The notes under the pieces: model-generated
What the model was told of the DNA's origin: nothing
Database searches by the model: none
Seen by the model: only the letters and a program-made list of their open reading frames with translations
In this document: in pieces, positions 3,867 to 21,762 of the stretch
Layout of the letters: each line of letters opens with the position of its first letter
Numbering within the stretch: position 1 is the stretch's first letter
Made by a program: the position numbers and the translations under genes
Origin: an uncultured Gammaproteobacteria bacterium
Lineage (GTDB): Bacteria > Patescibacteriota > Patescibacteriia > Magasanikbacterales > GWA2-37-8
Length of the DNA stretch: 64,000 nucleotides
Direction: 5' to 3'
Assembly (NCBI GenBank): GCA_964465205.1
Contig: CAYXJO010000008.1
Coordinates: 2,164 to 66,163 of the forward strand

Positions 3867-5621
3867 ATGAGCACTTTAACAATTCATATGAATAACAGCC
3901 AGAATGCTTCCGTGGCCGGAGCAAAACCAAATAAGCCACAAAATGCCAAGCTTTATACAGCACTGGTTACCGCACCAAACGGTACTGCTAATACTACGCA
4001 ATACATCTTGGAAGTCATAGGTAGCACCGCTAAAGAATTATTTTTGGACCAATTCGGGAATCTTTACATAGTTGTCCAAGTCAAAGAAACCGACAAACAC
4101 ATAAAGGTCAATTCGGAAGAGTTCATAAAATGGGTCTCCATGACGATGAACATCTTAGGTAAAATAGTCCCAAACCAGTCATCAATCAGACAGGCTGGAC
4201 ATACGCTATCTGGATACGCCGAGTATGACAAAAGCCTCGCGTCTCGCAAATACCTGTCTGTCCGCGTGGCCAAAACAGAAGACGGGGCCATCTATTACGA
4301 TCTAAAAGATAAAGTGGTAAAGATCATCGCGACGGGCTGGAATGTAACTACAAACCCTCCAATATTATTCAGAAATTTCAACATGCAATCCACCCAGGTC
4401 GATCCAGCACCAGTAGGTGTGAATGATCAAAGGTACATCTCTAACTTCGTCGATTCTTTAAATCTCAAAGATGACGCCAGTAAATTGTTAATGAAGGTAT
4501 ACTTAGCCACAAGTTTTATCCCAGATTTTGCTCATCCTATAATTCAAATATCGGGACCGAAGGGCTCGGCCAAGAGCACGCTATTTGCAAGATTAAAGGA
4601 TATCATTGATCCGTCTGTGATTAGAACACTGCCACCCATTACCAAGATGGAGCAATTCATCCAAATCGTATCGCACAACTGGGCCGCATATTTCGACAAC
4701 ATGTCGTCATTAGATGTCGAATCATCCGATATGTTTTGTCGGGCGTGCTCGGGCGCTGGCTATGTGAAGCGCGAATTGTACTCGGACGATAACGACATTG
4801 GCTATGTCTTTAAGCATCTCATTGGCATTAACGGTGTTGTTAATATAGCCAGCCGCGCCGATCTAGTTGATCGAATATTGTCCATTGAACTAGACGCGAT
4901 ATCGCCAGACAAAAGATTAACAGACGCGGCGATTTGGCAGAAACACAACGCCGAAAAACCAATGCTACTAGGCGAATGTTTCACGGTGGTATCACAAGCA
5001 CTGGCCTTAGAGCCGACACTGAAAGAACAAATACCGACTTCAACCAGAATGGCAGACTTTGCGTACTGGGGTTACTTGGTTGCCGAGGCCATGGGGATTG
5101 GTGGTATGAACTTTTTCAACACATACCGATCACTAGTTAATACCCAAGATGCCGATGTCATTGACAACAACCTACTAGCATCCGTCTTTGAACATTATGT
5201 TACCAACTATCCGATAATCATCAATGAAATTACCGCCAGTGATTTGTTGGTGGCGTTAAATAAAGAAGCGGAAAACTTGTGCCCTGATTATAAACACAAT
5301 CGAAGATGGCCAGATTCACCACAGTGGCTATGGAGACGATTGTCTGAATACCTGACAAACTTCCAACAAAAAGGTATTGTTGTACGCCAAGAACGACAGA
5401 GTAAGTCTCGCAAAATTATTATCGACAAGACCATCTACGACAATAACTTGACTATAGCTAACCAAATTGAGTTGATAAATGCTAATAACCCGATACCGTT
5501 GGAGTACGACGAGCCATTCAATGAAGCAGAAATGGAATTTGAGCAGGGATTTAAAGATCTCGTCGATCCCCTTTTAGTTGGGCACGACGACATGACGACA
5601 TTTCTTGCTTTTAATAAGTAA
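3867..5621 (+). CDS. Phage/plasmid-type replication protein: P-loop NTPase of the primase-associated (VirE / D5 / P4-alpha-like, SF3-helicase-like) kind
   Basis: Walker A ISGPKGSAKSTLFARL and Walker-B-like AAYFDNM. Its size and position next to a recombinase in a mobile-element context support the call. Family assignment is from motif memory only. Confidence 0.55.
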   Translation: MSTLTIHMNNSQNASVAGAKPNKPQNAKLYTALVTAPNGTANTTQYILEVIGSTAKELFLDQFGNLYIVVQVKETDKHIKVNSEEFIKWVSMTMNILGKIVPNQSSIRQAGHTLSGYAEYDKSLASRKYLSVRVAKTEDGAIYYDLKDKVVKIIATGWNVTTNPPILFRNFNMQSTQVDPAPVGVNDQRYISNFVDSLNLKDDASKLLMKVYLATSFIPDFAHPIIQISGPKGSAKSTLFARLKDIIDPSVIRTLPPITKMEQFIQIVSHNWAAYFDNMSSLDVESSDMFCRACSGAGYVKRELYSDDNDIGYVFKHLIGINGVVNIASRADLVDRILSIELDAISPDKRLTDAAIWQKHNAEKPMLLGECFTVVSQALALEPTLKEQIPTSTRMADFAYWGYLVAEAMGIGGMNFFNTYRSLVNTQDADVIDNNLLASVFEHYVTNYPIIINEITASDLLVALNKEAENLCPDYKHNRRWPDSPQWLWRRLSEYLTNFQQKGIVVRQERQSKSRKIIIDKTIYDNNLTIANQIELINANNPIPLEYDEPFNEAEMEFEQGFKDLVDPLLVGHDDMTTFLAFNK

Positions 5622-6088: not shown

Positions 6089-7678
6089 ATGACAAAACAA
6101 ATCAAAACTATCATTAACAACTCCGATCGTGGAGTAATTTATTATCGCGTTTCAACCTCGGAGCAAGCCGAACACGGCTTTAGTTTGGAAAGACAACGCG
6201 AACTGTGCCTCAATCACGCCAAGGCAAAAGGCATAGAAGTCATCTCGGAATTTCATGACGACGGCGAATCGGCAAAGACCGCTAACCGCAAAGGATTGCA
6301 AGACATGCTCAAATACTGCGCAGACAGGAAGAATAATATCGGCCATGTAATCTTCTACAAGATTGACCGACTGACAAGAAATGTCGATGATCATGTGTTT
6401 GTGAAGACCGTGTTAAAGAAGGCCGGTGTGAAGTTAACTTCAGTCACCGAAAGCATGGATAACGAAACTCCAGCCGGAAAATTTACCGAGAATATGTTAG
6501 CGGCGGTGGCACAATTTGATAATGATGTCCGCTCGGAACGTACGCGCGGTGGCATGTATGGATGTTTGAAAACCGGACGCTGGCCATTCCGCGCCCCCAT
6601 CGGATACCTCAACCACATTGATAGTGATAAGAAGAAATCTATCGCGCTTGATCCCAAAAGAGCTAACCTGGTAAAAACCATATTTACTGAATACGCCAAC
6701 CCCATAGTTACCCAGGAAGAGGTACGTCGTAAGGTTAACAATCTTGGGCTACGAGATGCTCATGGTCGGCAAATCCGTCCACAGTTTATCAACAAGATAT
6801 TACAAGACCGTTTCTATATTGGCACCATGACAGTAAAAGGAGTGGATTACCCAGGCACGCACGATAAATTAGTCGACGAAGAGACCTTTGAATTGTGTCA
6901 AAGAAAGTTGAGATATTATGACCGCGGCGATCATATCGCCATTGGTCGATATGACGAAGACTTCCCATTAAGACACTTCGTGGTGTGCGAAGATTGCAGA
7001 CGGCCACTAACCGCCGCGTATTCTACCGGGCGTTGGGGCAAGAAATTCCCTTACTACCGTTGCTATAACAAACAATGCCCGAGTCATAAATCATACCCCA
7101 AACAACTACTGGAAGAAGAATTCGCTAATTATCTAAAAGAGATTGTGCCCACTGAAGAGCAGATGGAAACTTACCGGATGCATGTATTGGATATATGGCA
7201 AACGAAATTCAAAGAAATCAACACTCATCGCGAAAGATTGGAGCGCGAACTGAAATCTGCTCGCGAGGAGAAGGAAGGCATTATCGAGATGAAAGCCAAG
7301 AAACAAATTAACGACGAGGAGTTCCAAGTAATGTTCACCAAAGCCAGAATCAAAGTAGACGATCTCCAAATAACGTTTGGCCAAACCGACCTGGAAGAAT
7401 ATGATTTAGATGAGGCAATTAAACACTCCATCGCCTTCGCCGCACAACTCGCGAGCTATTGGGAAAAGTCGCCGTACTTCCAACGCTTGTCTATTCAGGG
7501 TTTAATTTTCCGCCAAAAGCCTACTTATGGAGATTCGAAATTTGGAACCCCAAAATTACCGCTAATGTTTGAACAAAAACAGATTTCCGTACAGGGGAAA
7601 TCCGCTATCGTGGACCGTATCGGATTTGAACCGATGGCCTCTTCCATGCCATGGAAGCGCTCTAGCCAGCTGAGCTAA
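6089..7678 (+). CDS. Large serine recombinase (resolvase/invertase catalytic domain + recombinase domain + zinc-ribbon)
   Basis: N-terminal YYRVSTSEQ...GFSLERQRE...DDGESAKT catalytic-Ser domain. C-terminal CEDCRRPL...YYRCYNKQC zinc ribbon and coiled coil. The last about 22 codons are the reverse complement of tRNA-Ala. Confidence 0.85.
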   Translation: MTKQIKTIINNSDRGVIYYRVSTSEQAEHGFSLERQRELCLNHAKAKGIEVISEFHDDGESAKTANRKGLQDMLKYCADRKNNIGHVIFYKIDRLTRNVDDHVFVKTVLKKAGVKLTSVTESMDNETPAGKFTENMLAAVAQFDNDVRSERTRGGMYGCLKTGRWPFRAPIGYLNHIDSDKKKSIALDPKRANLVKTIFTEYANPIVTQEEVRRKVNNLGLRDAHGRQIRPQFINKILQDRFYIGTMTVKGVDYPGTHDKLVDEETFELCQRKLRYYDRGDHIAIGRYDEDFPLRHFVVCEDCRRPLTAAYSTGRWGKKFPYYRCYNKQCPSHKSYPKQLLEEEFANYLKEIVPTEEQMETYRMHVLDIWQTKFKEINTHRERLERELKSAREEKEGIIEMKAKKQINDEEFQVMFTKARIKVDDLQITFGQTDLEEYDLDEAIKHSIAFAAQLASYWEKSPYFQRLSIQGLIFRQKPTYGDSKFGTPKLPLMFEQKQISVQGKSAIVDRIGFEPMASSMPWKRSSQLS

Positions 7679-7684
7679 CGGCCC
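7611..7684 (-). tRNA. tRNA-Ala (anticodon GGC); CCA not encoded
   Basis: Hand-folded cloverleaf: acceptor GGGCCGT/ACGGTCC with the G3:U70 Ala identity pair. D-arm GCTC-AGCTGGCTA-GAGC. Anticodon arm CTTCC-ATGGCAT-GGAAG. T-arm ATCGG-TTCAAAT-CCGAT. Discriminator A. Confidence 0.8.
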
Positions 7685-7723: not shown

Positions 7724-10700
7724 TCAAGGCTGGGCCGCAGAACTGTTAACTACTGCTTCTTGGCTGGGTAACTCTACCGCAGCAGGGGGCTCAATCGATG
7801 TTTCTTCGGCTGTCGGCACATCTGGCTCTGCAGTTGGCATAATTGGCTCCGCTGTGATTTCTGGTACGGTCGATGTTGGCACTGAATCCTGATCAAATGC
7901 TGGCGTAGAAGTGCCCGCATTGCCCACAACTGTCTCTTCGATAGCCGCATCATCAATCGGCTCAGCAGTACCAGCATCTCGCACTTGACCGTCTCCACGC
8001 CTAGCCACCACTACCCAATCAAATGTAGCGTCGCTTTGACCCCCCATCAATTCTTTTACTACAAAACCAAAAGCATCCTTCGCCTTCACAAATATACCCT
8101 TCGCTTCTTCTGATGTCAGTGTTACACTCACTTTCAATGATTGACCGCTGTCTATCATATCGCGAGTACTGGTATCAAACTTGATATATGTTTCTCCAGC
8201 CTGCAATCTACCGGAACCCGAAAACACTAGTTCCGAAGATAATGCTTGCATCGCATACACGTCCTTGTTGCCTTCCGAAGTCTGCACCACCGATACCAAC
8301 AAACCATCTTCGGTAATGCGCCACTTGTCACTACGAGCGTGCACCGCGGTCACGTTGGCCAAAATTGCGCCATTCAAATTTAACTCATTGTTCTTTACCA
8401 TCAAATAATCTGATCTCTGATCAATGGTCAATTCGGTCGAAGTGGACACAACACTATCTTTCGCCATAAAATTTGCCAAAGTAGTGCTAACATTATCAAT
8501 TGCACTCCAAATGGCACTATTGTTGCTTAATTCTTCTACCTGAAAAAAAGCCAACGACGTCGATACTATGCCCAAAGAGTCAGAGAACTCTCCAAATCCG
8601 GCCATTAATTTTTCGGTACTACTATTTAAAACGGCCAACTGATTACCGAATAACATCGTCATCTCATCTGATAACTTAACCCGAAAAGCATCGCCAAATA
8701 ATTGTAACTTAGAATCAATCAACGCCGACAGTTGTGACACAGAACTAAAATCATACTTACCAACAGCACTGGAAACTAAAATTTGCACCTCATCTTCAAT
8801 CTTCATATCGGCGATATGGCGAGTAATTTTTTCTTCCACCTGCTCCACAGTCATAGACTTATTGCGACGCGAGATCAAAACATTCACTGTACCAACACCG
8901 GAATCCAACCCTTCTAAAGCCACACCAACTGTCGAATCACCAGCATCAGCACGCATAAGATACCCTGGGGTACTACTGGCGCTAGTAAGACTATCTCCCG
9001 GACGAACAGGCCCGTTTTCTGCGCTCACTTTTGCCGCCACCTGGCCGAGCATGCCAATAATTTTATAATTCGGATCATTCTCGCGATCACCGCTCTTATT
9101 ACCAATAATTGACGGCTTGGTGGATACAACGCCCATAATATCCGGATCGGCACTGCGCGTACAGCGTTTGACGGCGTTATTTTTTGTCACATCCACGCAC
9201 ACTACTTCGCCCGATGTTAAGTCCTTGTCCTTGGTATAGAAATACTCCGCGTAGTCAGCGCCATTGGTGAGATAACTACCGGTAATATTTACACTACCAG
9301 AAACAGTAAGTGCGTAATTGGGCGTGGTCGTGCCGATACCGACATTACCGTTACCAGCAATAGTCAAATAACTACCAATATTATTACGCATCGGACCAAA
9401 GTGTAGTGAGGTGGTAGCACCAGACGTTACAGCACTACCAACTTGTATATACACATCACCATCTTCATCGGTAACCAACCTAAGATGAGATGGGGTGCCG
9501 CTGGTGTTGGCTAGCGATATACCTGCATTATTGCCCCATAAATGCAATAAATCCTGTGGCGTGCTAGTCCCAACACCTACATACCCATTACTACTCACGA
9601 ATAACGCTGGTTGAGTAGTAGAGGTATAAACTGATAACAGTGTACTAGTGGAAGCCCCTATTATAGACAATCTCGCATTTGGAGTAGATGTGCCAACACC
9701 CACTTTCCCATAATTTGTTCGGGCGATTAAAGCTACCACACCATCGTTACCACCGCCAACACCATTGCCGCCATCAATATATGTTATACCACCATTTCCC
9801 GAACCAACACCATTACCGCCAGCGATAATAATATCATAACCATTACCAACAGTAGTGCGAAAAGGGCCGATAACAACATTCTGGTCCAAAGAACCCAGAG
9901 TAACATCAAATTGATCGCCATAGGCGCCAAAAGCTGCTTTGGCCGCTGGAGATGCAGCGACATTATCTAAATAAGCGCCAAAGTTTGAAACAATTGAAGT
10001 ATTACTGTCTGAGGCGTTGGTTTTAACTCGACTGATGATGGTGGCGTTGCTTGTACCAGCAGTATAACCAGTGGAAGAAGAAAATACATACAACGGTGAG
10101 ATCGGTGTAGTAGTGCCAATACCCACATTGCCACCCATGATAGCCATGGTATTTGCTTGGGTCACAGAAAACCTAGAGCCAGTATCTAGACCAATACCAA
10201 CCGACCCGGAGCCCGAAACTGTCATGCCACTACCCATGGCCATAGTCGTGTTACCACTTGAAGCATTACCACTGCCAATAGCGACAGCGCCGTTGTAACC
10301 GTCTACTAAATTCAAACTACCAATTGCTACTCGGCCCTCCACCAAAGGTGCATCTGACCCATTGGTAACTGTTCGGTTGGCAAAACCTATAAGCACTGTG
10401 CCATGATGTACATAACTAGACGGCCCATCATCAATATGATTACTATTACCAATCAAAGCAACACCGCGATTAGTACCAGTGACCACAGCGTTCCAATCGG
10501 CTATGAATACTCCATTTCTAAAAGCCAAACTACTAGTTGCTGACAAAACACCTCCACTATTATATTGCACCTCTCCATCATTGCCGGCCACCGTTGTAGT
10601 AGCAGAACCAAAAGCGGACCACGTACCACCAGAATTTTTGAACTCTAACACACCACCATTATCACGCAAGCCATAGCCACCAGTACTGGTAATCGCGCCA

Positions 10701-13700
10701 AAGTTTATATAGCTATTACTATCTAACAAAGAAATGCTGCCGCTCACTGTCAGCGCCGCCACAGTATTAGTTGTCGCAATACCAACAAAACCAGTAGTAC
10801 CAGCTCCGTTAGACGATCCAACAAATAAGGTGGGCAAGTCACTGTTGAAACCAATCATTAAAGAATCCGCAATATTATTAACAAGCGGATTGTTTATGCC
10901 AGCTCCCACACCAATTACTGAACTTTGAACAGCTGCTGCCTGTACCGCACTGCCTATCACTATGGAGTCTCGAGCGGTCGCTTGTGCGTTAGCACCAAAA
11001 GCCAAACTACTCTCACCTGATGCTAAAACATTCTTACCAATTGCCTGCGAACTAGTGCCAATGTTCACATTATCCCATTCAGTACTACTAGCTATACCAG
11101 CACGAAACGAACCCTTGCTCGGTATCCACATCAGCCGAGTGCCAGCACCAGAAAAAGGAGTGTCGCCCGATGAACCATTAAATAACACTGAACCATTTTC
11201 AACCCCCAACCTGGCTATTACCGAAGTGGTACCCACTCCCAACTTCCACATTGCCGGGTCCCAATTAAGACCATTGTCACTAGTGATCGTAGAACTACCA
11301 TCCCACCAAGCTATTTGGTGGCTTGAACCACTTCCTTGCACACCTGTTACACCGGTAGTATTGGTAGAGATCGTGTACCAATTATCATCGCTACTGTGCT
11401 TAACTTGCACAAGACCGCCATAATCGCGCAAACCATAGCCATCCGTACCTGTTACGGAGTTAAAATTTAAGTAATTGTTACTGCCGTGCAACAACATGCC
11501 GCCTGATACCGACAGCTTAGTTGGCGGGTCTGAAATACCAATTCCAACATTCCCCGTCTGATCAATAGTCATTCTCACCACCCCAGATGAAGTGTCATTC
11601 TGTACGGTGGAGAAAGATATTTTGGAACCCTTGGCCGTATTGGTAAAACTTTGAGTAGCGCGAAAGTCAATCGACGAACCATCTAAAAACGTGCCCCAAG
11701 CACTAGTACCATAACCCACTGCAGTAATCGAACCCAGACGGTCATCATTCTGCACAGCCGAAGGCGCACTTTCGGTACCGCGCGCATAAGCCAAACCAAA
11801 AGCCGGATAACCACTACCGGGCGTTAATCCAGAATAATATGCCGCCGCAATAGCCGAGTCAGCTTGGTAGCCCCCGACAGCTACCAAGCTCAGACGGGTC
11901 AAAGGCCTACTGGTTCCTACGCCGACATATCCGGTGCTACTGCTAATAAACAAAGCTGAAGTAACAGTCCAACTAGTGCCGACACTATACAAAATATTAC
12001 CATCGGATCCGCTAGGCAAACTTCCACCACTGCTTATGTTTGCCCAATCTCCGCCACTATTTTTATATTGCATCGTACCGTTCAAGTCGCGAAATCCGTA
12101 GCCAGCAGTACCAGTAACATTATCTCCCGAGCCGAAATTCAAGTACGTAGTAGCACCAGGGCCAATACTTGATATCAAAGCATCACCATACACAGACAAT
12201 CTGGCTGGTGGATTACCAGTAACAGAGCTACCAATGCCGACATTACCGGTATGATCAATTACCATACGCGTATATGAACCATCAGAACCATTAGGTACCG
12301 TTTGAAACATGATTTTGGAACCGTTACTAGTAGAGGTAAATTGTTCCGTTGCCACAAATCTAATAACTGGACCCGCCCCAAAAGTCCAACCATCAACACC
12401 ATAACCTCCAGCTACTATTTGACCAAGATTATCTCCATTCTGAATTGCTGTCGGGCTAACAGGTGTCCCACGCGCTCGCATCAACGCGATTGTTGCGCCA
12501 GAATTATTGTCATTATAATACCACATGGATTGACCAGCACTAAAAGTATCAGTGCCGGATATGCTCAATTTAGTCAATGGATCCACAGTTCCAAAACCAA
12601 CATAACCCGTACTACTACTTATGTATATTGTCCGAGTAGCAACCCAATTGGCACCGACCGATGATATGATAGCCCCGTCTAAACCGGCAGGTACTGAACT
12701 AGTGCTAATATTCGTCCAAGCGCCATCGCTATTTTTGAATTGGATTGTGCCAAGATTATCACGGAAACCATAACCAGAGGTGCTAGTGGTGGAACCAAAA
12801 TTAATATAATTATATGATCCCTCCAATAATATGTTCCCATACACCGATAACTTCGATTCTGGCGACTCAGTACCAATACCAATATTACCACTATGATCAA
12901 TTACCATACGTGCCAATGTCGGGTTGGATAAACCATTTTGCGTAGTATACATAGCAATCCTAGAACCACGCCTACTACCGCCAGAATTAGAGAAATTTTC
13001 CGTAGCTTCAAAATTAATAAATGACGACACACTATAAGTACCACTACCTATATAACCCGACGCCAACACGCTACCAATCCAATCACCTTGTTGAACTGCT
13101 GTGGGACTGCTTTTGGTGCCACGTGAGTGCGCAAACATGACAGCCGGATACCCATCAGCGCCATGATAAAAAGAACTTATCATTGATTGTCCAAAAGAAC
13201 CAAGTGCTGATGATTCGCCTACCGCCGATATCCCGGTAGTGGGATTAGTCGTGCCTACACCTAAATACCCAGACACAGTGGTGGTGGCTAAGGTCGTATT
13301 TCTAGTTATAACAAGACTGCCGTTAGCATAAATCCCGGTCGAAGTTACTCGATTGAAGTTGAAGTTGCCTTGGGCATCAGAGATAGGAATATAAGTGGAC
13401 GTAGAAGCAGTCGAGGTGGCAGATACACCATCAAGATATTTGGAGTTAAAAGAATATGGCGCAGCAGTAATGCGTTTGCGCGGAGATAACACTTGCCCGT
13501 CGATACTAATCTCTAAATATAGATCGGAATTATTTTGAAATATAGTTGGCGACAATGAGTTGGTGCCGGTATCACCCAAATTTACACTAAATAATCCGCT
13601 AACTGGTGTAATATTTACAGTTGAAGTGGTTGGCAACGTACCGGAAGCAGTGTATAAAGCCGTTCCGCCAGACGCGTTATTGTATATAACGAATTTCATC

Positions 13701-13891
13701 GCCAAGGTGGTAGTAGCTGCTGTCCCATTCACTAACAATTTACCTTGATAAGTAATTATCGCTGGGGTGGCAGCCGCTTTTGTCGGCACGCCGTTACAAG
13801 TCGCAAAAATTGTAAACAAAACAATCCCGAATAACAAAAAGTTACGGAGTTTGCCAATTTTCCACCGTACGCTCTCAGTATATTTCCACAT
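7724..13891 (-). CDS. Giant secreted repeat protein (2055 aa) with about 20 degenerate repeats (..STGYVGVGTTNP.. / ..GNVGIGT..P..LSV..) and a Pro/Thr/Glu-rich C-terminal tail
   Basis: N-terminal signal/TM segment (LLFGIVLFTIFATCNG). Long Gly/Ser/Thr/Asn-rich beta-repeat body. A non-repeat module ...NGADYAEYFYTKDKDLTSGEVVCVD...IMGVVST... Terminator downstream. Confidence 0.85.
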   Translation of the reverse strand: MWKYTESVRWKIGKLRNFLLFGIVLFTIFATCNGVPTKAAATPAIITYQGKLLVNGTAATTTLAMKFVIYNNASGGTALYTASGTLPTTSTVNITPVSGLFSVNLGDTGTNSLSPTIFQNNSDLYLEISIDGQVLSPRKRITAAPYSFNSKYLDGVSATSTASTSTYIPISDAQGNFNFNRVTSTGIYANGSLVITRNTTLATTTVSGYLGVGTTNPTTGISAVGESSALGSFGQSMISSFYHGADGYPAVMFAHSRGTKSSPTAVQQGDWIGSVLASGYIGSGTYSVSSFINFEATENFSNSGGSRRGSRIAMYTTQNGLSNPTLARMVIDHSGNIGIGTESPESKLSVYGNILLEGSYNYINFGSTTSTSGYGFRDNLGTIQFKNSDGAWTNISTSSVPAGLDGAIISSVGANWVATRTIYISSSTGYVGFGTVDPLTKLSISGTDTFSAGQSMWYYNDNNSGATIALMRARGTPVSPTAIQNGDNLGQIVAGGYGVDGWTFGAGPVIRFVATEQFTSTSNGSKIMFQTVPNGSDGSYTRMVIDHTGNVGIGSSVTGNPPARLSVYGDALISSIGPGATTYLNFGSGDNVTGTAGYGFRDLNGTMQYKNSGGDWANISSGGSLPSGSDGNILYSVGTSWTVTSALFISSSTGYVGVGTSRPLTRLSLVAVGGYQADSAIAAAYYSGLTPGSGYPAFGLAYARGTESAPSAVQNDDRLGSITAVGYGTSAWGTFLDGSSIDFRATQSFTNTAKGSKISFSTVQNDTSSGVVRMTIDQTGNVGIGISDPPTKLSVSGGMLLHGSNNYLNFNSVTGTDGYGLRDYGGLVQVKHSSDDNWYTISTNTTGVTGVQGSGSSHQIAWWDGSSTITSDNGLNWDPAMWKLGVGTTSVIARLGVENGSVLFNGSSGDTPFSGAGTRLMWIPSKGSFRAGIASSTEWDNVNIGTSSQAIGKNVLASGESSLAFGANAQATARDSIVIGSAVQAAAVQSSVIGVGAGINNPLVNNIADSLMIGFNSDLPTLFVGSSNGAGTTGFVGIATTNTVAALTVSGSISLLDSNSYINFGAITSTGGYGLRDNGGVLEFKNSGGTWSAFGSATTTVAGNDGEVQYNSGGVLSATSSLAFRNGVFIADWNAVVTGTNRGVALIGNSNHIDDGPSSYVHHGTVLIGFANRTVTNGSDAPLVEGRVAIGSLNLVDGYNGAVAIGSGNASSGNTTMAMGSGMTVSGSGSVGIGLDTGSRFSVTQANTMAIMGGNVGIGTTTPISPLYVFSSSTGYTAGTSNATIISRVKTNASDSNTSIVSNFGAYLDNVAASPAAKAAFGAYGDQFDVTLGSLDQNVVIGPFRTTVGNGYDIIIAGGNGVGSGNGGITYIDGGNGVGGGNDGVVALIARTNYGKVGVGTSTPNARLSIIGASTSTLLSVYTSTTQPALFVSSNGYVGVGTSTPQDLLHLWGNNAGISLANTSGTPSHLRLVTDEDGDVYIQVGSAVTSGATTSLHFGPMRNNIGSYLTIAGNGNVGIGTTTPNYALTVSGSVNITGSYLTNGADYAEYFYTKDKDLTSGEVVCVDVTKNNAVKRCTRSADPDIMGVVSTKPSIIGNKSGDRENDPNYKIIGMLGQVAAKVSAENGPVRPGDSLTSASSTPGYLMRADAGDSTVGVALEGLDSGVGTVNVLISRRNKSMTVEQVEEKITRHIADMKIEDEVQILVSSAVGKYDFSSVSQLSALIDSKLQLFGDAFRVKLSDEMTMLFGNQLAVLNSSTEKLMAGFGEFSDSLGIVSTSLAFFQVEELSNNSAIWSAIDNVSTTLANFMAKDSVVSTSTELTIDQRSDYLMVKNNELNLNGAILANVTAVHARSDKWRITEDGLLVSVVQTSEGNKDVYAMQALSSELVFSGSGRLQAGETYIKFDTSTRDMIDSGQSLKVSVTLTSEEAKGIFVKAKDAFGFVVKELMGGQSDATFDWVVVARRGDGQVRDAGTAEPIDDAAIEETVVGNAGTSTPAFDQDSVPTSTVPEITAEPIMPTAEPDVPTAEETSIEPPAAVELPSQEAVVNSSAAQP

Positions 13892-14001: not shown

Positions 14002-17000
14002 TTACTGCTGTGTTGTTATGTCGACCGGCTTATCTGGCATAGTATTATTATCGCCTGTACTTACTGTTGAAGTTGGTGTGGGTTTATTGGGTGGCGATTG
14101 TAAACCGTCCGCCTTTTTCAGCGCTACATCCAATGCAATCGCCGCCGCATCTTGCCCGCGCAAGTCAATGTCTTCGGTTTTGGCCTGTTCATAACCCGGA
14201 CGTTCATAAGTAACATAAAACTGACTATCCGCTGCCAAAAATGTATAACGGCCATTCCTGTCGGTGATTTCGGTTGACACTAACTTGTTGAAATGTGAGT
14301 CAAACAGACGCGCCACCGCCCTATCCAACGGTTTTTTAGTGTGTTCATCATAAACAATACCCCATCCTTTGGCCTTTTGCATCACCGCCAATCTTCTAAA
14401 TAACAAGAACAAAACTATATGCACACCCAGCAATACCCACATATACCATTTTGGCGAAATATATAACGCCACAATAGTCACAAACAAACCTGTCCAAGAA
14501 ACCAAGATTTGCACATGACGCAACACTCTTTCCACATACAAACGTCGTGGTGTTTTGGACTCACCAGCCGGATCCATTGGAATGTTGGCGGTAATTGTAG
14601 TATCTTTGACCGTTACTTCGATCACTTCACCATGGTACAAATCCGTACGCCGACCATCGCTTTTGAAGTCCACCAACAACTTGGTAGGCGACACAAACCC
14701 GGCCTTAAAAGCTTCAATCTTATATTTACCCGGATCAGCAATGAAAATGTATCTACCATTTTTATCGGTTACACGTGAACGAATAATCTTACCGGATACC
14801 GCATCAACCAGACGCACTATCGCCAAATCAACCGGCATTTTACTTAAAGAGTTATACACCTGACCCCAATTTTTGCGCTTACGCCGGCCTATCAACAAAA
14901 TCGGCTGAAAAAACAATAGTTGTAGAAATGCCCACAAATTAGAGAAAGAAATAAGCGACACTGTGCCAACAGCCACCACACCTACGGCCGCCGGAGCCAC
15001 AATTTGAGTCGCTGCTTGTTCTACCACCGGATTATCTACCGTCTCTTTGATAACCTCCACTGCTCTTTCAATATTGGCGGGAATGGCCGCGGCGATAGTC
15101 GCCGGCTTCATTGTTAACCGAACTTGTCGATTAACTACGTTATTAGTAACAAGAAATCTTTGAGTCTTATGTGAATAGTATCTGTCTACATCTAACGCCA
15201 AATAATATTTACCATTTGGCACTACCCAACCAAAAACACCGTTGCGATCCGAGATTAACGGATTCAATTGTCCGTAATAATCGGCATTAAACAGTTCTCC
15301 TTTATCGTTGTACAGTTTTATATTGACCCCTTCCAAAGTAACTCCGCCGTCGCCGGTCACCACGCCTGTCGGCAAACTAGACAATTTAAAATTTACACTA
15401 TCAGTTTGACCCGATCCGTAATCTATCTCCAAAAAGGCGCTATTATCCCCATTTGGAAAAACAATATCGGTATAATATGTTTTTTGTTCATTGTCCAAAT
15501 TCAAGGCGTATTCGTTATTACCAAACCTCAACGCCACCCTAATAGGTGGCCCAGCCAACTTGACGCGTGGTACACCAACCGTAAACGCCGATCGCACCAA
15601 ACTACGTACGACACCCGCAGTATCCGGACGCAACTCAATATTGCGTGCTCCTCCCCAAAATAGTAGATCGCTAAGGTTCAAGTGTACAAAACCAGGTACG
15701 GTTATACCTCGACGACAATCAGTGGTGTTGAAAGAACAGTTGCTATTACACCGAACTACACCTTCATTCCAATCTATATTAAAATCACCGCAAGATTTCG
15801 TAATCGGCAGATTAGTTTCGCAATCTTCACCTATGTCCACAGTGCCATTGCCACAATTTTGTGGGTTGCCACAAGATAATGTGCAGTCACTGGCACAACT
15901 AGAAATACCACAACCGTTCAACGCACCATTGTCGCAATCCTCGGCTCCTTGTCTGGTGCCATCACCACACACCGGACAAACTTGAGTTTGGCACGTAGCA
16001 CTACAGGTGCTAGGGCAAATTCCATTGTTCGATCCGTGATCGCAAGTCTCTCCAGCACTAACATCAAGGTTACCATCGCCACAATTACCACCGCCTATAT
16101 GAGAACACCCTGAATAGTTATAAGTACAATTATTATTACAAGTAACTACACCGGAGTTCCAGTTGGCGTCTTGCTCGGCACAAGTACGAGTAATTGGTTT
16201 GTTTGGCTCACAATTTTCACCAGCGTCTGGCTCTCCATCACCACAATAGCCTTCATTTTCACAAACATTTCTCTTACAACTCATACTGCAGGCCTCTGGA
16301 CACACACCATTGGACCCGCCATTATCACATTCTTCACCCGCCACATCAATGAGTGAGTCGCCACAATAAGCTACTTTACAAAACACTTTGGCACCAGTGC
16401 TATAGTTGTCGGAGGTGTCTTTGGTAAAAATCTTATAATAATAATTTTTGTTTGCCGAAATACCACTATCAGTATAAGTCTGGCCGATACCGTCATAAAC
16501 CAAGACACCATCCAAATGCCCCGTAGGCTCAACATCTAGCTTTCTCACCACTTCTACTCCGGCAAAACAAGCCTCCGATAATTGATCGGGGTTGATCCAA
16601 GACAGTGCACAATTACGACTGGTGGTCACAACACCAAACTCCGAAACATTGGTAGGATTATTCAACATGTCCAACAATGTAGTGAAGGTATCATCGCTGG
16701 TACGCACTTGTTCATCACCCACTGCCGACACAACCTCGTAATGATAGGTAGTATTGCCGCACAAGTTGCTTACTAGTTGGCTATGGTTCGACAATAACGT
16801 AGAATTACCGATCATTGAACCATAGGCCGAAGTTAATCCATAATTAATCTGACTATCTGAATCTTTGTTGGTATTCCAAGTAACACTGGTAGTGGTCATG
16901 CCTGCACGAACCACTACATTATATATAGATAATGCTTGCCAAGGTGCCAACGTGCGGAACGTACCAACTACCGCCGAACCATTATTGGAGCTATCAGTAC

Positions 17001-17919
17001 AAGTGATAGTGAAACTATAACTAGTGTTCTCGGATAACCCTGATAAATTTACATTAAAATTACCGGCCGTAGGCTGATTCACTGTAGCGGCCGGACCACT
17101 ATAACTAAAACTACAATTTTGTAACCCACTCGCTCCATCATAAGCAGTCCACACCACATTCGCGGTAGTATAACTAGTCGAAGTACTGATAATAGTAATG
17201 GTCGGCCCTTCACAGTCGCCCTTGCAATTATGCGCCAGAATGCCGTCGGCAAAATAATTGTGGATATTAGACACTTCAAAGTTATACACAGTTGCCACAC
17301 TATCCACCCAACGTAAAGACCTCACCTTGACCATTTGCCCATGCTCATCTTGCAGACTGTCTCCGATATGTAGCTCGCCAGCCTCTTGCCACGCGCCATT
17401 TATATACAGTCGATGATTTGGTGTTACTTTCAAAAAATTATTAACAACTAAATATCCTGGGACATTATCGTGTTGGAACTTTTGCAAAACTTTTTCAACT
17501 TGCAGTTGTTTGGACTGCTCATCGTAACTATAAACTAAGTCACCCACAACAATATCGGCAATGCGCTTGCTAGAATTATTAGCTAGCAAAATCTTGGTAT
17601 CAGGCAAAAAACAAGGATTGCAATCCGGGTGTCCCACAGCACGACAAGTCGAGACCTGCCAACCACTACAATCTGCTTTACAACTGGCGGTACCACAGCC
17701 GTACAATGTAGAGCTAATACTAGTACAACTCGCGCTGCCACCATCACAAACTTCACCTTCATTTATAATATTATCTCCACACATCGCAGAGACAGACACA
17801 GTCATGTTGATATCAACACTACCGCTATCAGTGGCCGCCCAAGAGTCAATAAAATACCCCACCCCAATAATGGTAGTTATGACAAAAATCAAATTCATTA
17901 TAAACCTATGTTTTATCAT
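14002..17919 (-). CDS. Giant multi-domain surface protein (1305 aa): signal peptide, Hint/intein-like domain, FN3-like domain, Cys-rich CxxC..CDxG.NG.CP..C repeats, carboxypeptidase-regulatory-like (DxNGRYxF) domains and TM helices
   Basis: Motifs read from the translation. CGDGxxDxGExCD..NG.CP..CS..C repeats. DKNGRYIFIADPGKY and DRNGRYTFLAADSQFY modules. Two hydrophobic helices in the C-terminal third. Confidence 0.85.
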   Translation of the reverse strand: MIKHRFIMNLIFVITTIIGVGYFIDSWAATDSGSVDINMTVSVSAMCGDNIINEGEVCDGGSASCTSISSTLYGCGTASCKADCSGWQVSTCRAVGHPDCNPCFLPDTKILLANNSSKRIADIVVGDLVYSYDEQSKQLQVEKVLQKFQHDNVPGYLVVNNFLKVTPNHRLYINGAWQEAGELHIGDSLQDEHGQMVKVRSLRWVDSVATVYNFEVSNIHNYFADGILAHNCKGDCEGPTITIISTSTSYTTANVVWTAYDGASGLQNCSFSYSGPAATVNQPTAGNFNVNLSGLSENTSYSFTITCTDSSNNGSAVVGTFRTLAPWQALSIYNVVVRAGMTTTSVTWNTNKDSDSQINYGLTSAYGSMIGNSTLLSNHSQLVSNLCGNTTYHYEVVSAVGDEQVRTSDDTFTTLLDMLNNPTNVSEFGVVTTSRNCALSWINPDQLSEACFAGVEVVRKLDVEPTGHLDGVLVYDGIGQTYTDSGISANKNYYYKIFTKDTSDNYSTGAKVFCKVAYCGDSLIDVAGEECDNGGSNGVCPEACSMSCKRNVCENEGYCGDGEPDAGENCEPNKPITRTCAEQDANWNSGVVTCNNNCTYNYSGCSHIGGGNCGDGNLDVSAGETCDHGSNNGICPSTCSATCQTQVCPVCGDGTRQGAEDCDNGALNGCGISSCASDCTLSCGNPQNCGNGTVDIGEDCETNLPITKSCGDFNIDWNEGVVRCNSNCSFNTTDCRRGITVPGFVHLNLSDLLFWGGARNIELRPDTAGVVRSLVRSAFTVGVPRVKLAGPPIRVALRFGNNEYALNLDNEQKTYYTDIVFPNGDNSAFLEIDYGSGQTDSVNFKLSSLPTGVVTGDGGVTLEGVNIKLYNDKGELFNADYYGQLNPLISDRNGVFGWVVPNGKYYLALDVDRYYSHKTQRFLVTNNVVNRQVRLTMKPATIAAAIPANIERAVEVIKETVDNPVVEQAATQIVAPAAVGVVAVGTVSLISFSNLWAFLQLLFFQPILLIGRRKRKNWGQVYNSLSKMPVDLAIVRLVDAVSGKIIRSRVTDKNGRYIFIADPGKYKIEAFKAGFVSPTKLLVDFKSDGRRTDLYHGEVIEVTVKDTTITANIPMDPAGESKTPRRLYVERVLRHVQILVSWTGLFVTIVALYISPKWYMWVLLGVHIVLFLLFRRLAVMQKAKGWGIVYDEHTKKPLDRAVARLFDSHFNKLVSTEITDRNGRYTFLAADSQFYVTYERPGYEQAKTEDIDLRGQDAAAIALDVALKKADGLQSPPNKPTPTSTVSTGDNNTMPDKPVDITTQQ
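17227..17613 (-). other. Hint (Hedgehog/intein) / bacterial intein-like domain, residues about 103-231 of the giant protein
   Basis: Block A CFLPDTKIL. Block B VTPNHRLY (TxxH). Terminal VYNFEVSNIHNYFADGILAHN followed by Cys (+1). No endonuclease insert (about 129 aa). Confidence 0.7.
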
Positions 17920-18814
17920 ATCGTGCCTGAAGCTTTTTCATTTTAATCTTGCGAACAAATTTAAACGTCAGCATAAATACCACAATGACTACTACTGATA
18001 GTCCAACCAAACTCCACACTGGCCAATACCACACATAATCGACAGCTGTTATACTCTGTTTAGTCAAACCATACGCTATTCTAGACTCAACTTGGTAGAT
18101 ACCGGGCCACAAAACCGATCCTGCCACATCTGTTTCAAAGTTGGTAATTTTTTGGGCCCCTGCCAATACTTTATTATTGGAAAAAATCTGCTTGACGACC
18201 AAAGCGTGTCCGCGCCAACTATTTATTACCAACTCTCCACTAACTGGCACCTCGACATTACCTTTGTTCTCCAACACCAAATCAAAACGCCATGATTTTT
18301 GACTAGTCCAACTTTGTTCGCTTTCAAATTTTTTAACAAGTAAAGACTCGTATGCTGAACCAGAGACTTGTATTGTAATCAAACTCAACAAACGAGGCGA
18401 AAAACCCACATTGCTTTTACCTGTGTTTCCTGACTCAACCCCCAGACCCAAATAGTGACTCCCAGGGATTGCGTCGCGTGGAATATCAATCTCAAAAACA
18501 ACCTCACTTTTACCGCCGGGTCCCACATTTATTTCTGTGTCAACCGACTTGACCCATTGCTCTGCGGACTCCAAATTTTTACCAAATACCGGCTGTCCTT
18601 TTTCGCCCTGACGAACACCAAATACGACTGGCACAAATTTCATTCCTATGGCTTCATCGTTATCAACCTGTATCTTGGTCACTTGTGTACTACCGGGATC
18701 GGCTGTAATCAAAAAACGTACCGGACTAATGGTAAATGCCAGCGTGGGTGGCGCCCAAAAAAATGACAATGCCAATAAGAATAGTAATTTACGCCACATA
18801 AATTGCCAGCACAA
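17906..18814 (-). CDS. Secreted protein with N-terminal signal peptide and C-terminal TM anchor (302 aa)
   Basis: N-terminal LLFLLALSFFWAPPTLA. C-terminal WSLVGLSVVVIVVFMLTF followed by a basic tail. Confidence 0.7.
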   Translation of the reverse strand: MCWQFMWRKLLFLLALSFFWAPPTLAFTISPVRFLITADPGSTQVTKIQVDNDEAIGMKFVPVVFGVRQGEKGQPVFGKNLESAEQWVKSVDTEINVGPGGKSEVVFEIDIPRDAIPGSHYLGLGVESGNTGKSNVGFSPRLLSLITIQVSGSAYESLLVKKFESEQSWTSQKSWRFDLVLENKGNVEVPVSGELVINSWRGHALVVKQIFSNNKVLAGAQKITNFETDVAGSVLWPGIYQVESRIAYGLTKQSITAVDYVWYWPVWSLVGLSVVVIVVFMLTFKFVRKIKMKKLQARYDKT

Positions 18815-18818
18815 AAAA

Positions 18819-19454
18819 TTAAAAATTAGCGGAAGCGGTCAAAACTACCGTTTGACTATAACTACCCGCCACCGTAGTCGAACTAATAGCTGCTTTAAAT
18901 TCCAATACCGTAGCACTGCCCACAATCGGCGCGACAGAAGCGGCAATAAGCAGACTGCTGGTCACCGCCACATCACCGCTAGTAAGTTGATTCTCTGCTC
19001 CGCTGCCGGCCACACCAAACGCTTCAGTGCCGGCTGTCACTGTACCCCCAACCACATCCTGCAGACTACCACCCGACCAAATCGCACTTCCAACTGTTAA
19101 CGAATAACCTGTCCCCGCGTCAGTAGAGACCGTTGCGGTGGTAGAAGCACTACTTACCGTAGATGTACTCAAGGTGCCCAAATTCAAAGATGAGTCAGAG
19201 ATACTCAAACTGATATACCCCCTATCCATAGCCTGATAACCGCCACGAATTTCATAAGTGCCGTCATTCATAATTCCCACCGGCGACTCTCCCAAACTGG
19301 AATCCAAACTATACTCGCCACCAATGCTAAACACACCACCGGAATCAATCGTGTCGGCATAGATGTAGTAATCTGTGGAAGACATGGCGGCAAATAAATT
19401 CGTCGGCAAAATTAGCGCGCCTAACAATAGAATTGTAACAATGAATAATCTCAT
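18819..19454 (-). CDS. Secreted Ser/Thr/Gly-rich protein (about 211 aa from MRLFIV start)
   Basis: Signal-peptide-like MRLFIVTILLLGALILPTNLFAA. The listed ORF start at 19508 overlaps the upstream gene. I prefer the ATG at 19454. Confidence 0.6.
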   Translation of the reverse strand: MRLFIVTILLLGALILPTNLFAAMSSTDYYIYADTIDSGGVFSIGGEYSLDSSLGESPVGIMNDGTYEIRGGYQAMDRGYISLSISDSSLNLGTLSTSTVSSASTTATVSTDAGTGYSLTVGSAIWSGGSLQDVVGGTVTAGTEAFGVAGSGAENQLTSGDVAVTSSLLIAASVAPIVGSATVLEFKAAISSTTVAGSYSQTVVLTASANF

Positions 19455-19482
19455 TTGGCGAATATTAAAAACGGCGGCAAAA

Positions 19483-21762
19483 TTATTGTTGCACTGGTGC
19501 GCCCACAAGTGATCGAATCTTATTTATAATATCTTTATTATCGGGATTCAAATCTTTCACTTTATAATAATATTCTAGAGCTTTAGCTTTGTCACCGCGT
19601 GATTCATACAACAAACCTAAGCTATATAAAGCATTAGAATAATTCGGCTGAATACGCACAGCCTCCAACCAAAATTTTTCGGCGTCAGCACGATCAGTAC
19701 CCTTATTGCGATTGTAAATCAAGCGGCCATAATTGAACAAAGCGTCAGGATTTTGTAGGGCCACCGGCATAATTGTCTTATACGACTCTACTGCTTTATC
19801 CATTTCTTGTTTTTGTTCATAAGCATTGGCCAAACCAACATATGAACCAACATAATCTTGTTTCAAACGAATCGCTTCCTGATAACTCTTGATTGCCTCA
19901 TCCCACTTACCGGCCAAACTGTAATTATTGCCAAGTCTCCACCACAATACTGGGTTGGTAGGTTCTAAATCCTTGGCTTGGGTAAGTGATTTGATCGCCC
20001 AATCACGCGCCTGTTCTACAATCAATGCCGCGTTCTCATACATGGTAGACAGGTTTTCCCAAATACCAACCGAAGCCGGAGAAATATCAGTGGCAGCTTT
20101 GGCTGCGTTTACTGCTTTGGCCACCAACACACTTACATCTTGCAAATTTGGATTTTGACCCTGACTCGCGTTAGATGCTTGCAACAAATAAACTTGCGCA
20201 AGCGCGGCATTATAAACATCAGAGCTACTGCGTTGTGCCAATGCTTCAGATATTTTTTGTTCCGCTACTTTGGCATCAGTCGCCTGCAACGCTTTGGCAT
20301 ATACAGTTTCAGCGTAGTAGAGCTTGGCACCCCAAACACCCACCATTACCACCGCAGCAATCACTACGATCAAAGTAAAAGAAAAAGACAAACTATATTG
20401 AGGAGTATCATCTACTTCCCAAGACAAATATTTTATAACTCGATCACTAAGGAAAGATAGTCCAACTACAGTTAGACTTAATAAGGATACCCAGAGCCAC
20501 CACAACACTGGCCCAAAAAATAACACCGCCATACTACCGGTCAAAACAATCCAAGCCACCGCTACCAACAGGATATCCAGCCCCACCTCTTCTCCACCAA
20601 ATGGACTAATAGTAATTTTCCCGGCTTTGGCTTTCTTGTACCAAGCTTGGAAAATATGCCCCAACAAAAGTACGAACAAAAATATAAAAGTTAAAAAGAC
20701 CACAATGCCCCCCTCGGCTAAAAGCGCTATTAGGGTGCTAAATGGTTGGTTGAAACGTAAAGACCATGCTGTAGAATCATAATTGAAATCAGCCGGACGA
20801 AATTTGGAAAACTCATAACCAAACGTTCCCAAGCCACTACCAATCACGAAACTTTTTACACCCGAAAACGCGGAATTGTAAGCGATTGTCCATGATGGCT
20901 TGAGCCCAAGTGCCACTTCGGCCGGTACAGCGGATTGTAAGGACTTTGGCGTACCAAACGCAATAAATACCACAGTAAGGATCAAACCCGCAAACAGTGC
21001 TGATACACACCCCATACGAACTTCGGACACAAAACTAACACCCACTAATAATAAAAGTGCCAAGCCAATCAATAACACCCACCACAAGACGTTGAAACTT
21101 AAAAGTACTAATGATGTAAACGCCAAAATAGTAACAAAAAAGTACAACAACGAACGCCCGGTGGGAATTTCTTTGCGCAACAAGTGACCGGCCGACAACA
21201 ACAGAACCACAATTAACCACAAACCAAACTGACTATTCAGTTTATCTATAAGATTCCATGCACCCGGAGCCAAAAAGCCGATGAGATCCCACTTGAAAAC
21301 CATCTTAAAAATAAAAGTAAGTGCGGTTAGTCCACCTACTGCAATAATCGCGTCGATGATTCCACGCCAACGCTTTACGGTAGTCAAATGATTTGTGTTG
21401 AGAAAAAAGTACAATACCAAGAAGAACAAAAACATGAAGTTGAACACAAAATATTCATTACGGCCAAGAAAGCTGTCGTTGGCATTAACAGAAAAAATAC
21501 CCGACACCAATGTCACTAACAAGAATACTAGAAGCGGTAAATCAAAAATTGAACGGCGGTATTCAAATTGTTTTGACAATACTACGCGCGCCGCATATAA
21601 CAAAAATGCTACCGATACCAAACCAATGAATACATACTGTTTTGGTATGATAAACGAATTTAATAAATTGCGATCCACAAATAACGACATTGCTATTCCC
21701 GCGACTAAAAGCACCACATAGGTAAGCGTATCCAACACCTTATAGGCTGATTGGTTTGACAT
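19483..21762 (-). CDS. Polytopic membrane protein with O-antigen-ligase-like (Wzy_C-type) core and C-terminal TPR repeats
   Basis: >=10 hydrophobic helices in the N-terminal 450 aa. The C-terminal region has TPR-like AxxYxxAL periodicity (WDEAIKSYQEAIRLKQDYVGSYVGLANAYE...). Confidence 0.7.
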   Translation of the reverse strand: MSNQSAYKVLDTLTYVVLLVAGIAMSLFVDRNLLNSFIIPKQYVFIGLVSVAFLLYAARVVLSKQFEYRRSIFDLPLLVFLLVTLVSGIFSVNANDSFLGRNEYFVFNFMFLFFLVLYFFLNTNHLTTVKRWRGIIDAIIAVGGLTALTFIFKMVFKWDLIGFLAPGAWNLIDKLNSQFGLWLIVVLLLSAGHLLRKEIPTGRSLLYFFVTILAFTSLVLLSFNVLWWVLLIGLALLLLVGVSFVSEVRMGCVSALFAGLILTVVFIAFGTPKSLQSAVPAEVALGLKPSWTIAYNSAFSGVKSFVIGSGLGTFGYEFSKFRPADFNYDSTAWSLRFNQPFSTLIALLAEGGIVVFLTFIFLFVLLLGHIFQAWYKKAKAGKITISPFGGEEVGLDILLVAVAWIVLTGSMAVLFFGPVLWWLWVSLLSLTVVGLSFLSDRVIKYLSWEVDDTPQYSLSFSFTLIVVIAAVVMVGVWGAKLYYAETVYAKALQATDAKVAEQKISEALAQRSSSDVYNAALAQVYLLQASNASQGQNPNLQDVSVLVAKAVNAAKAATDISPASVGIWENLSTMYENAALIVEQARDWAIKSLTQAKDLEPTNPVLWWRLGNNYSLAGKWDEAIKSYQEAIRLKQDYVGSYVGLANAYEQKQEMDKAVESYKTIMPVALQNPDALFNYGRLIYNRNKGTDRADAEKFWLEAVRIQPNYSNALYSLGLLYESRGDKAKALEYYYKVKDLNPDNKDIINKIRSLVGAPVQQ

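Follow-up and report, generated by a model that had tools for sequence, protein, structure and literature searches.

A 129-residue segment close to the N terminus of a giant surface protein raises the question of whether it is a working self-processing domain and, if so, what it does to the protein that carries it. The segment is encoded at 17227-17613 of a 64,000-nucleotide stretch of contig CAYXJO010000008.1 (GCA_964465205.1), hereafter called the window. An earlier sequence-only reading had placed a Hint-like module with blocks A, B and G there, without naming a strand. Judged by profile scores and a predicted structure, the segment is a genuine Hint domain. Our favoured reading, to which we assign a probability of roughly 55%, is that it is a catalytically intact A-type bacterial intein-like (BIL) / PT-HINT domain in the linker between a Cys-rich module and the fibronectin type III (FN3)-like domains of a membrane-anchored surface protein, and that it would excise itself after export with ligation of its flanks. 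Knowledge of BIL and PT-HINT domains goes back to 2003, and the window Hint fits this family; in that respect the finding is correct but ordinary. What sets the window copy apart is that, within the BIL clade, it has naturally gained a Cys at position +1, a kind of change that engineering suggests turns a cleaver into an efficient splicer. Together with its orthologues, which carry Lys at +1, it forms a natural pair for studying the evolution of splicing versus cleavage.

Identity of the Hint domain and its host protein

The minus strand of 17227-17613 is translated without stop codons into CFLPDTKILLANNSSKRIADIVVGDLVYSYDEQSKQLQVEKVLQKFQHDNVPGYLVVNNFLKVTPNHRLYINGAWQEAGELHIGDSLQDEHGQMVKVRSLRWVDSVATVYNFEVSNIHNYFADGILAHN, and the plus strand contains stops throughout. 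The proposed module was thus recovered exactly, as the 129 residues CFLPDTKILL...KVTPNH...ADGILAHN, with its coordinates lying on the minus strand. On its N-terminal side stands ...GHPDCNP, on its C-terminal side CKGDCEGPTITI, and its length leaves no space for an endonuclease domain. When the isolated segment was compared with Pfam, PT-HINT (PF07591) was the top-scoring family (56.1 bits against a cut-off of 27.7). Intein_splicing (PF14890) reached 42.3 bits against a cut-off of 35.8 (32.9 bits within the full protein), and Vint, Hom_end_hint, Hint and Hint_2 stayed below threshold. The NCBIfam profile intein_Cterm (TIGR01443) gave 22.5 bits, its cut-off being 15.6, so that three profiles uphold, well beyond chance, the Hint homology suggested from the sequence.

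Among PDB sequences, the best match was the Clostridium thermocellum BIL 2LWY (E=8.7e-10), followed by the Tetrahymena BIL2 and the Mtu RecA mini-intein. A profile of 45 family members searched against the PDB scored 88.5 bits with 2LWY, 86 bits with BIL2 and 79 bits with UmbC1 (8W20), and 52.9 bits with the best intein. The alignment of the same 45 members was the input for an AlphaFold2 model, which was all-beta with a pLDDT of 94.6 and a pTM of 0.88. In a Foldseek search of the PDB, BIL2 (6Y75) ranked first (TM-score 0.88, E=2.8e-12) and 2LWY next (TM-score 0.85, root-mean-square deviation 1.7 Å), with class-1 mini-inteins (0.75-0.84) and Hedgehog 1AT0 (0.71) at lower ranks. The best 50 of the 58 matches with E<=0.001 were all BILs, inteins or Hedgehog Hog domains. 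BILs therefore precede inteins in the structural ranking just as they do in the profile scores. Taking into account the higher BIL scores, the predominance of Lys at +1 in the family and the non-conserved nature of the host surface protein, we favour the BIL / PT-HINT class over a canonical intein.

The catalytic positions point in the same direction as the fold. In the 45-sequence alignment (A1), Cys1, the Thr and the TxxH motif, and the His and Asn are invariant. The window Hint has the complete reactive set of a class-1 intein, namely Cys103, His169, Asn231 and Cys232. The suggestion that the junction residues would fit either protein splicing or BIL-type processing accordingly stood, with the profile scores (79-88 against at most 53 bits) favouring the BIL side as far as sequence can tell.

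A-type BILs end in His-Asn, and the proteins that carry them are non-conserved, with the domain in a variable region (PMC7765530). The C. thermocellum domain 2LWY (CthBIL4; Amitai et al. 2003) shares with the window Hint Cys1, TxxH, His-Asn, the block F motif VYNF, a length of about 130 residues and the lack of an endonuclease. A-type BILs also resemble the window Hint in being located where a non-conserved secreted protein varies and in their presence or absence among homologues (PMC7765530). The window copy differs in its +1 Cys, BILs being characteristically without a nucleophile at this position (PMC7664689), and in its host, a surface protein from the candidate phyla radiation (CPR) with the insertion near the N terminus; on account of the +1 Cys it is, by descent, an atypical member of the BIL / PT-HINT clade. 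BIL2 of the Tetrahymena thermophila BUBL protein (6Y75 / 6TMM), the best structural match, is eukaryotic and cytosolic, has ubiquitin-like flanks, forms a Lys isopeptide (PMC8616854) and is only 27% identical to the window Hint. Class-1 mini-inteins (Ssp DnaB, Mtu RecA, Npu DnaB) have the same fold, the same four reactive positions and insert-free homologues; unlike the window Hint, they show weaker sequence kinship to the family, occupy conserved housekeeping sites, appear to carry Asp in place of the block F Asn and typically have, or ancestrally had, a homing endonuclease. The Hedgehog Hog domain is a distant structural match; the window Hint has a His-Asn end with CKGDC and FN3 directly behind it, and no sterol- or adduct-recognition region.

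The host is a surface protein, lineage-specific and anchored in the membrane, from a bacterium of Candidatus Magasanikbacteria (CPR); the Hint is near its tip. The DnaA encoded in the window shares 88% identity with its counterpart in a metagenome-assembled genome (MAG) of Candidatus Magasanikbacteria, and its further named relatives belong to Magasanikbacteria or Patescibacteria. In a Ca. Magasanikiibacteriota MAG there is also a relative of the C-terminal part of the host protein (locus L002). The host protein, to which NCBI entry P0001, encoded on a 69.9-kb contig, is identical, consists in order of a signal-like segment, the Cys-rich module, the Hint, about three FN3-like domains, CGDG..ExCD-type Cys-rich repeats (five by a repeat regular expression), a beta-rich region and C-terminal helix pairs. 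In the C-terminal part, two hydrophobic helix pairs alternate with two CarboxypepD_reg domains. Pfam recognized CarboxypepD_reg with 66.7 bits and fn3 and Pur_ac_phosph_N weakly, and orthologues are annotated with PF00041 and PF16656 in the FN3-like region. Pfam and hydropathy thus agreed with the context described earlier, a giant signal-bearing protein with a Cys-rich region before the Hint and an FN3-like domain after it. The putative cleavage site of the signal peptide was placed by eye. The whole protein contains 47 Cys, to which, according to the hydropathy and composition analysis, the Hint contributes one, Cys1. The C-terminal 350 residues are the most conserved part of the host family, with 51-79% identity in the closer orthologues (P0002-P0007) and about 40% in the most distant.

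The GC content of the Hint (0.403) is close to that of the whole gene (0.436). A recent horizontal acquisition traceable by composition was rejected, as the values at third codon positions were 0.395 for the Hint and 0.40 for the gene. Searches of the 64-kb window by tblastn, with the Hint and with the whole protein, returned only the self-match.

The Hint family and its turnover at one linker site

A word-indexed homologue search with the 130-residue Hint gave no match, and the family was collected with an exhaustive HMMER search over 1.84 billion cluster representatives. With a threshold of E<=1e-3 this gave 12,252 representatives, of which 2,513 passed E<=1e-10. Residues were counted in 190 full-length instances drawn from the 150 best proteins. 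Cys1 was present in all 190 and a C-terminal His-Asn in 183. The +1 residue was Lys in 113, Ala in 18, Gly in 12, Asp in 11, Ser in 8, Arg in 7, Thr in 2 and Cys in 2, with a nucleophile at this position in about 10 only. One of the two Cys belongs to the window protein; the other was lost in a stricter, His-Asn-anchored recount, in which none of 188 related instances had Cys at +1 and about 95% were non-nucleophilic at this position. The closest Hint relatives (45-53% identity) reside in unrelated extracellular scaffolds, including NosD/beta-helix proteins, bacterial alpha2-macroglobulins and pilin-like proteins with tandem Hints. The extracellular Hint clade is therefore large and promiscuous, extending to tandem arrays and to insertions in alpha2-macroglobulin bait regions.

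In the host family, 9 of 82 open reading frames (ORFs), 8 of them distinct, carry a Hint, and the remaining 73 do not, so that the orthologues without the 129-residue insert that had been looked for do exist. In all Hint-bearing orthologues the domain lies between the N-terminal Cys-rich module and the first FN3, in a Gly/Pro-rich linker. The eight distinct orthologous Hints keep Cys1, TxxH and His-Asn; neither profile rejection nor a catalytically dead structural domain in orthologues, either of which was to have told against the sequence-only reading, was found. Their +1 residue is Lys in every case, the sequences after HN being KGECT, KGDETSP, KGDNTPP, KPTDTTPP, KGPPP, KPPYNNPP, KSGDTTSP and KGENVPP, as against HN/C-KGDCEGP in the window (slashes mark domain boundaries here and below). 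Most orthologues have neither the Cys-rich module nor the Hint, and the Hint occurs only alongside the module (9/9 vs 9/62; Fisher p=6.5e-7, uncorrected for phylogeny). Little-understood giant CPR surface proteins are thereby documented to carry Hint modules with predicted self-processing, a fixed site, lineage turnover and strict coupling to the Cys-rich module.

Hint-less orthologues that do have the module include P0006, P0004, L005 and L028. The empty site reads ...SGCSNGPGG/CTGDCSAPSVSG in P0006, the second part beginning with CTGDCSAPS, and ...CTVDCGIC/GGGETNDPPSI in L005. A hypothetical spliced product of the window protein is colinear with P0006 in alignment, with CKGDCEGP facing CTGDCSAP. 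We do not take the CTGDC of P0006 as proof that the +1 Cys derives from the host, because alpha2-macroglobulin-type relatives carry HN/[DEQ]KGD within the module and because, as a host relative, P0006 is not particularly close.

Similarities among the hosts and among their Hints disagree. The closest host (L001/L004, which are P0002/P0044; 79% C-terminal identity) has a 152-residue Hint only 31% identical to that of the window, and hosts at 52-56% identity have 128-residue Hints that are 47-48% identical to it; the second-closest host, L005 (67%), has none. The nearest relatives of the window Hint are those of NosD-type proteins (50-53%), and the Hints of the orthologues rank 49th or lower of 196. 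In a neighbour-joining tree with 100 bootstraps, the host-family Hints were monophyletic in 0/100 replicates and the window Hint grouped with that of the closest host in 0/100; the sub-clades L006+L029+L030 (100/100) and L001+L007 (99/100) were solid. Given the 31% identity to the Hint of the closest host and the lack of monophyly, a single vertical origin was rejected. Since host and Hint similarities disagree and the host-family Hints never form one group, we conclude that there were several acquisitions or replacements at this site: cassettes from no fewer than three or four Hint lineages were repeatedly acquired or swapped at a single linker position.

Three further ideas on the junctions and the cassette were rejected. 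At the N-terminal junction, the window copy has a CXXC motif (C100-N-P/C103), and three orthologues have CSS/C, CVT/C and CVS/C (L030, L025 and L001). This recalls the redox trap of engineered or natural inteins. As a family feature it was discarded, since Cys at -3 occurred in 2/188 instances, about the background, and the motif is local to the host family. The possibility that Cys232 is Cys1 of a degenerate second tandem Hint was ruled out by inspection, FN3 following directly. Among 133 unrelated Hint proteins, a Cys-rich module was present upstream in just 4, one of them a host-family member, and the idea of a general mobile cassette of Cys-rich module plus Hint was likewise abandoned.

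With respect to the wider family, array-bearing relatives (P0048, P0049, P0052, P0054, P0069, P0074 and others) contain 2-10 head-to-tail Hints separated by spacers of 2-6 residues (HN/KGGGG/CF, HN/KG/CL); P0049 is a pilin-like array protein with an N-terminal methylation motif. A subgroup of close relatives has the flanks AEGGG/CF...HN/[DEQ]KG[GD]. In two of its members, P0118 and P0167 (about 1.7-1.9 kaa; both scanned with Pfam), the Hint lies between the alpha2-macroglobulin bait-region domain PF07703 and the A2M domain PF00207, and P0159, P0160, P0173, P0174, P0180, P0182, P0189 and P0191 were assigned to the same subgroup by their Hint flanks and lengths. A self-cleaving module at the bait site, whose cleavage normally triggers the trap, would be mechanistically interesting, and within the searchable library no paper was found that joins alpha2-macroglobulin with Hint or intein-like domains.

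Predicted processing and its alternatives

From its residues, the window Hint probably excises itself after export, and plausibly does so by true splicing. The precursor would be exported by means of the signal peptide and the Hint would fold extracellularly. With help from Thr166 and His169, Cys103 would attack the Pro102-Cys103 bond in an N-S acyl shift, and the resulting thioester could pass to Cys232, the +1 Cys found in the window copy but not in its relatives. Cyclisation of Asn231, assisted by His230, would then free the 14.7-kDa Hint, and an S-N shift would couple ...HPDCNP to CKGDCEGPT.... The predicted ligation-junction peptide is ...HPDCNPCKGDCEGPTITI..., also given as HPDCNPCKGDCEGPTITIISTSTSYTTANVVWTAYDGASGLQNCSFSYSGPAATVNQPTAGNFNVNLSGLSENTSYSFTITCTDSSNNGSAVVGTFR, and the spliced product would have the architecture of Hint-less orthologues such as P0006. 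BILs without a +1 nucleophile mainly cleave, and a single mutation made efficient splicers of them (PMC7664689, citing Amitai 2003, Aranko 2013). Since the window copy has the full class-1 residue set and a single mutation reportedly turns BILs into splicers (PMC7664689), we consider splicing the best estimate for this copy. Cleavage at the N- or C-terminal side without ligation would be an expected side reaction and is likely to be the main one in the Lys+1 orthologues, for which cleavage, or ligation through an amine, is the more probable outcome. The idea of post-translational diversification, raised for this protein from its sequence, echoes the BIL literature (PMC7765530) and found no support in the present analysis.

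Several observations weigh against self-excision with ligation. Pro at -1 is unfavourable for the first acyl shift in engineered inteins; it occurs in 12/190 family instances and in orthologue L066. The Hint is set in an extracellular environment with 10 flanking Cys, Cys103 being part of a C100-N-P-C103 CXXC motif and Cys232 of C232-K-G-D-C236, and either reactive thiol, Cys103 or Cys232, could be locked in a disulfide. The Asn of VYNF in block F, found in at least 90% of A1, appears to align where class-1 inteins have Asp (PMC10663303). As all orthologues have Lys at +1, there would have been no historical selection for class-1 splicing at this site. Furthermore, an xKGD sequence after His-Asn is also present in the relatives borne by alpha2-macroglobulins, with Asp, Glu or Gln at +1, and because of this recurrence Cys232 may be a neutral substitution.

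The strongest competitor, well behind the favoured reading and still to be taken seriously, is BIL-type autoproteolysis without ligation. Cuts at the N-terminal junction, the C-terminal junction or both would release the 7.3-kDa Cys-rich module from the stalk in a Hedgehog-like manner, and Cys232 would be incidental. BIL domains yield predominantly cleaved products (PMC7664689), and the Lys at +1 of all eight orthologous copies and the non-nucleophilic residues of most relatives agree with cleavage. The confinement of the Hint to hosts with the Cys-rich 'cargo' module fits a module-linked function. Release nevertheless seems dispensable for the basic function of the protein, as Hint-less orthologues keep the module attached, and the full class-1 set of the window copy speaks for more than cleavage. 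Aranko and colleagues reportedly observed in 2013 that the BILs of C. thermocellum are able to splice when a +1 nucleophile is lacking.

A broader proposal, which we regard as improbable, would make the Hint, instead of a passenger, a functional thioester device that either releases the Cys-rich tip or links it covalently to a target (the surface of a host cell, for instance) by way of the conserved Lys at +1/+2 or of an external amine; the window copy would then be a natural BIL-to-intein 'reversion' by gain of the +1 Cys. If this were true, a Hedgehog/BUBL-like ligation would serve episymbiont adhesion or signalling.

Slightly more doubtful, taken by itself, is the variant in which the Pro102 thioester would be resolved by an outside amine or hydroxyl (a Lys side chain, the cell wall or a host-cell surface), covalently attaching the Cys-rich tip module. 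CPR bacteria are generally seen as episymbionts attached to the cells of a host. Lys is preferred at +1 (113/190 instances, and all eight orthologues) and is kept at +2 in the window copy, and in the host family the Hint occurs strictly together with an N-terminal cargo module. BIL2 of Tetrahymena, which gave the best structural match, makes an isopeptide with a Lys epsilon-amine and conjugates its N-extein to other proteins (PMC8616854). The comparison with BIL2 and with Hedgehog cholesterol transfer is one of analogy, though. FN3 stands directly behind the Hint in place of an adduct-recognition region, and the +1 Cys of the window copy would compete intramolecularly for the thioester.

An inactive Hint fold kept as a structural spacer in the stalk is unlikely to about the same degree, or a little more so. 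Pro at -1 and the oxidising, Cys-rich extracellular setting could block catalysis, and nothing about the Hint, such as a homing endonuclease, marks it as an active selfish element. On the other hand, the window Hint and all its orthologous copies have intact catalytic residues, which vary little or not at all among the 190 relatives, and Cys1 is the sole Cys that the Hint adds to a 47-Cys protein, as would be expected if a catalytic thiol had to stay free.

Polymorphic-toxin proteins deserve mention here because PT-HINT is the best Pfam family. In these the HINT sits just upstream of a variable C-terminal toxin, as in UmbC1 (PMC11062931, PMC4436062). Those of Streptomyces (UmbC1) and Neisseria (MafB) resemble the window protein in having secreted or surface hosts; in the window protein, by contrast, the Hint lies 73 residues past the signal peptide, over 1000 residues of conserved stalk and anchor come after it, and no toxin/immunity pair is evident.

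Least probable of all is that the segment is a mobile class-1 mini-intein of the canonical kind, or else a pre-toxin HINT releasing a C-terminal polymorphic toxin. Cys1, TxxH, His-Asn and Cys+1 are all present, and in the empty site of P0006 a Cys stands at the corresponding position. Against an intein speak scores well under those of BILs, a host that is a non-conserved surface protein and not a housekeeping enzyme, the Lys at +1 of the orthologous copies and the lack of both an endonuclease and a compositional anomaly. As for a toxin, the Hint occupies residues 103-231 of 1305 and the C terminus, made of hydrophobic helices and CarboxypepD_reg, is the most conserved part of the family, with conserved surface-cluster genes as neighbours.

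Feature coordinates and genomic neighbourhood

Table 1. Features of the host gene and of the surrounding window (positions are those of the window)
Feature	Position	Strand	Basis or remark
Host gene, 1305-aa Cys-rich membrane-anchored surface protein	14002..17919	-	ORF
Putative signal peptide, aa 1-29, MIKHRFIMNLIFVITTIIGVGYFIDSWA/A	17833..17919	-	Hydrophobic segment aa 5-29; equivalent N-termini in all orthologues
N-extein, 73-aa 7.3-kDa module with 8 Cys, starts CGDNIINEGEVCD, ends HPDC(-3)N(-2)P(-1)	17614..17832	-	Sequence
N-junction CXXC	17602-17622	-
Hint, A-type BIL / PT-HINT clade, aa 103-231, 129 aa, 14.7 kDa	17227..17613	-	Pfam, NCBIfam, PDB sequences, AlphaFold2, Foldseek
Cys103 = Cys1, codon TGT, predicted N-S acyl shift nucleophile	17611..17613	-	Opens block A
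Block A, CFLPDTKIL	17587-17613	-	Sequence
Block B, T166-P-N-H169 (TxxH)	17413..17424	-	Thr and His invariant in A1
Blocks F-G, VYNFEVSNIHNYFADGILAHN	17227..17289	-	His-Asn invariant in A1; Tyr-Asn of VYNF at least 90% in A1
His230-Asn231	17227-17232	-	Terminal His-Asn of block G
Cys232 = +1 residue, codon TGC	17224..17226	-	Only Cys+1 among 189 related and 9 host-family Hints
K-G-D-C after Cys232	17212-17223	-	Sequence
C-extein start, FN3-like domains, aa ~237-515	16375..17211	-	Weak Pfam fn3 and Pur_ac_phosph_N; conserved in all orthologues
Conserved cluster including the host gene	14002-21762	-
2055-aa protein	7724-13891	-	Peptidase_G2
Large serine recombinase	6089-7678	+	Resolvase + Recombinase + Zn_ribbon_recom
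tRNA-Ala(ggc)	7610-7684	-
584-aa ORF	3867-5621		No Pfam match
dnaA	31594-33000	+
373-aa ORF	33289-34410
879-aa protein	55768-58407	+	Three Lamin Tail Domain matches

The host gene belongs to a conserved cluster that also encodes a 759-aa multi-transmembrane protein with tetratricopeptide repeats, a 229-aa secreted protein and a 302-aa protein without a Pfam match. Among 80 orthologous metagenomic loci, homologues of the 759-aa protein were found beside the host gene in 21, of the 229-aa protein in 35, of the 302-aa protein in 52 and of the N terminus of a 2055-aa protein in 47. In the 2055-aa protein, whose gene adjoins the host gene, aa 1503-1603 match PF11962, the Peptidase_G2 intramolecular-chaperone autoproteolytic domain, with 29.4 bits; a YadA head repeat (PF05658) reached 20.4 bits and so stayed under its cut-off of 25. 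As the one protein has Peptidase_G2 and the other the Hint, two neighbouring giant surface proteins would each carry a different self-processing module.

Further away, the 3' end of a large serine recombinase gene overlaps a tRNA-Ala(ggc) gene on the opposite strand, an arrangement that may mark the edge of an integrated element; a 584-aa ORF lies upstream of the recombinase. Scanning the window with Rfam gave four tRNAs and nothing else. The presence of dnaA, followed by a 373-aa ORF, indicates that the window probably includes the region of the chromosomal replication origin. Another product of the window that is large and probably exposed at the surface is an 879-aa protein, which matches the Lamin Tail Domain three times and, more weakly, PKD and OB-fold domains.

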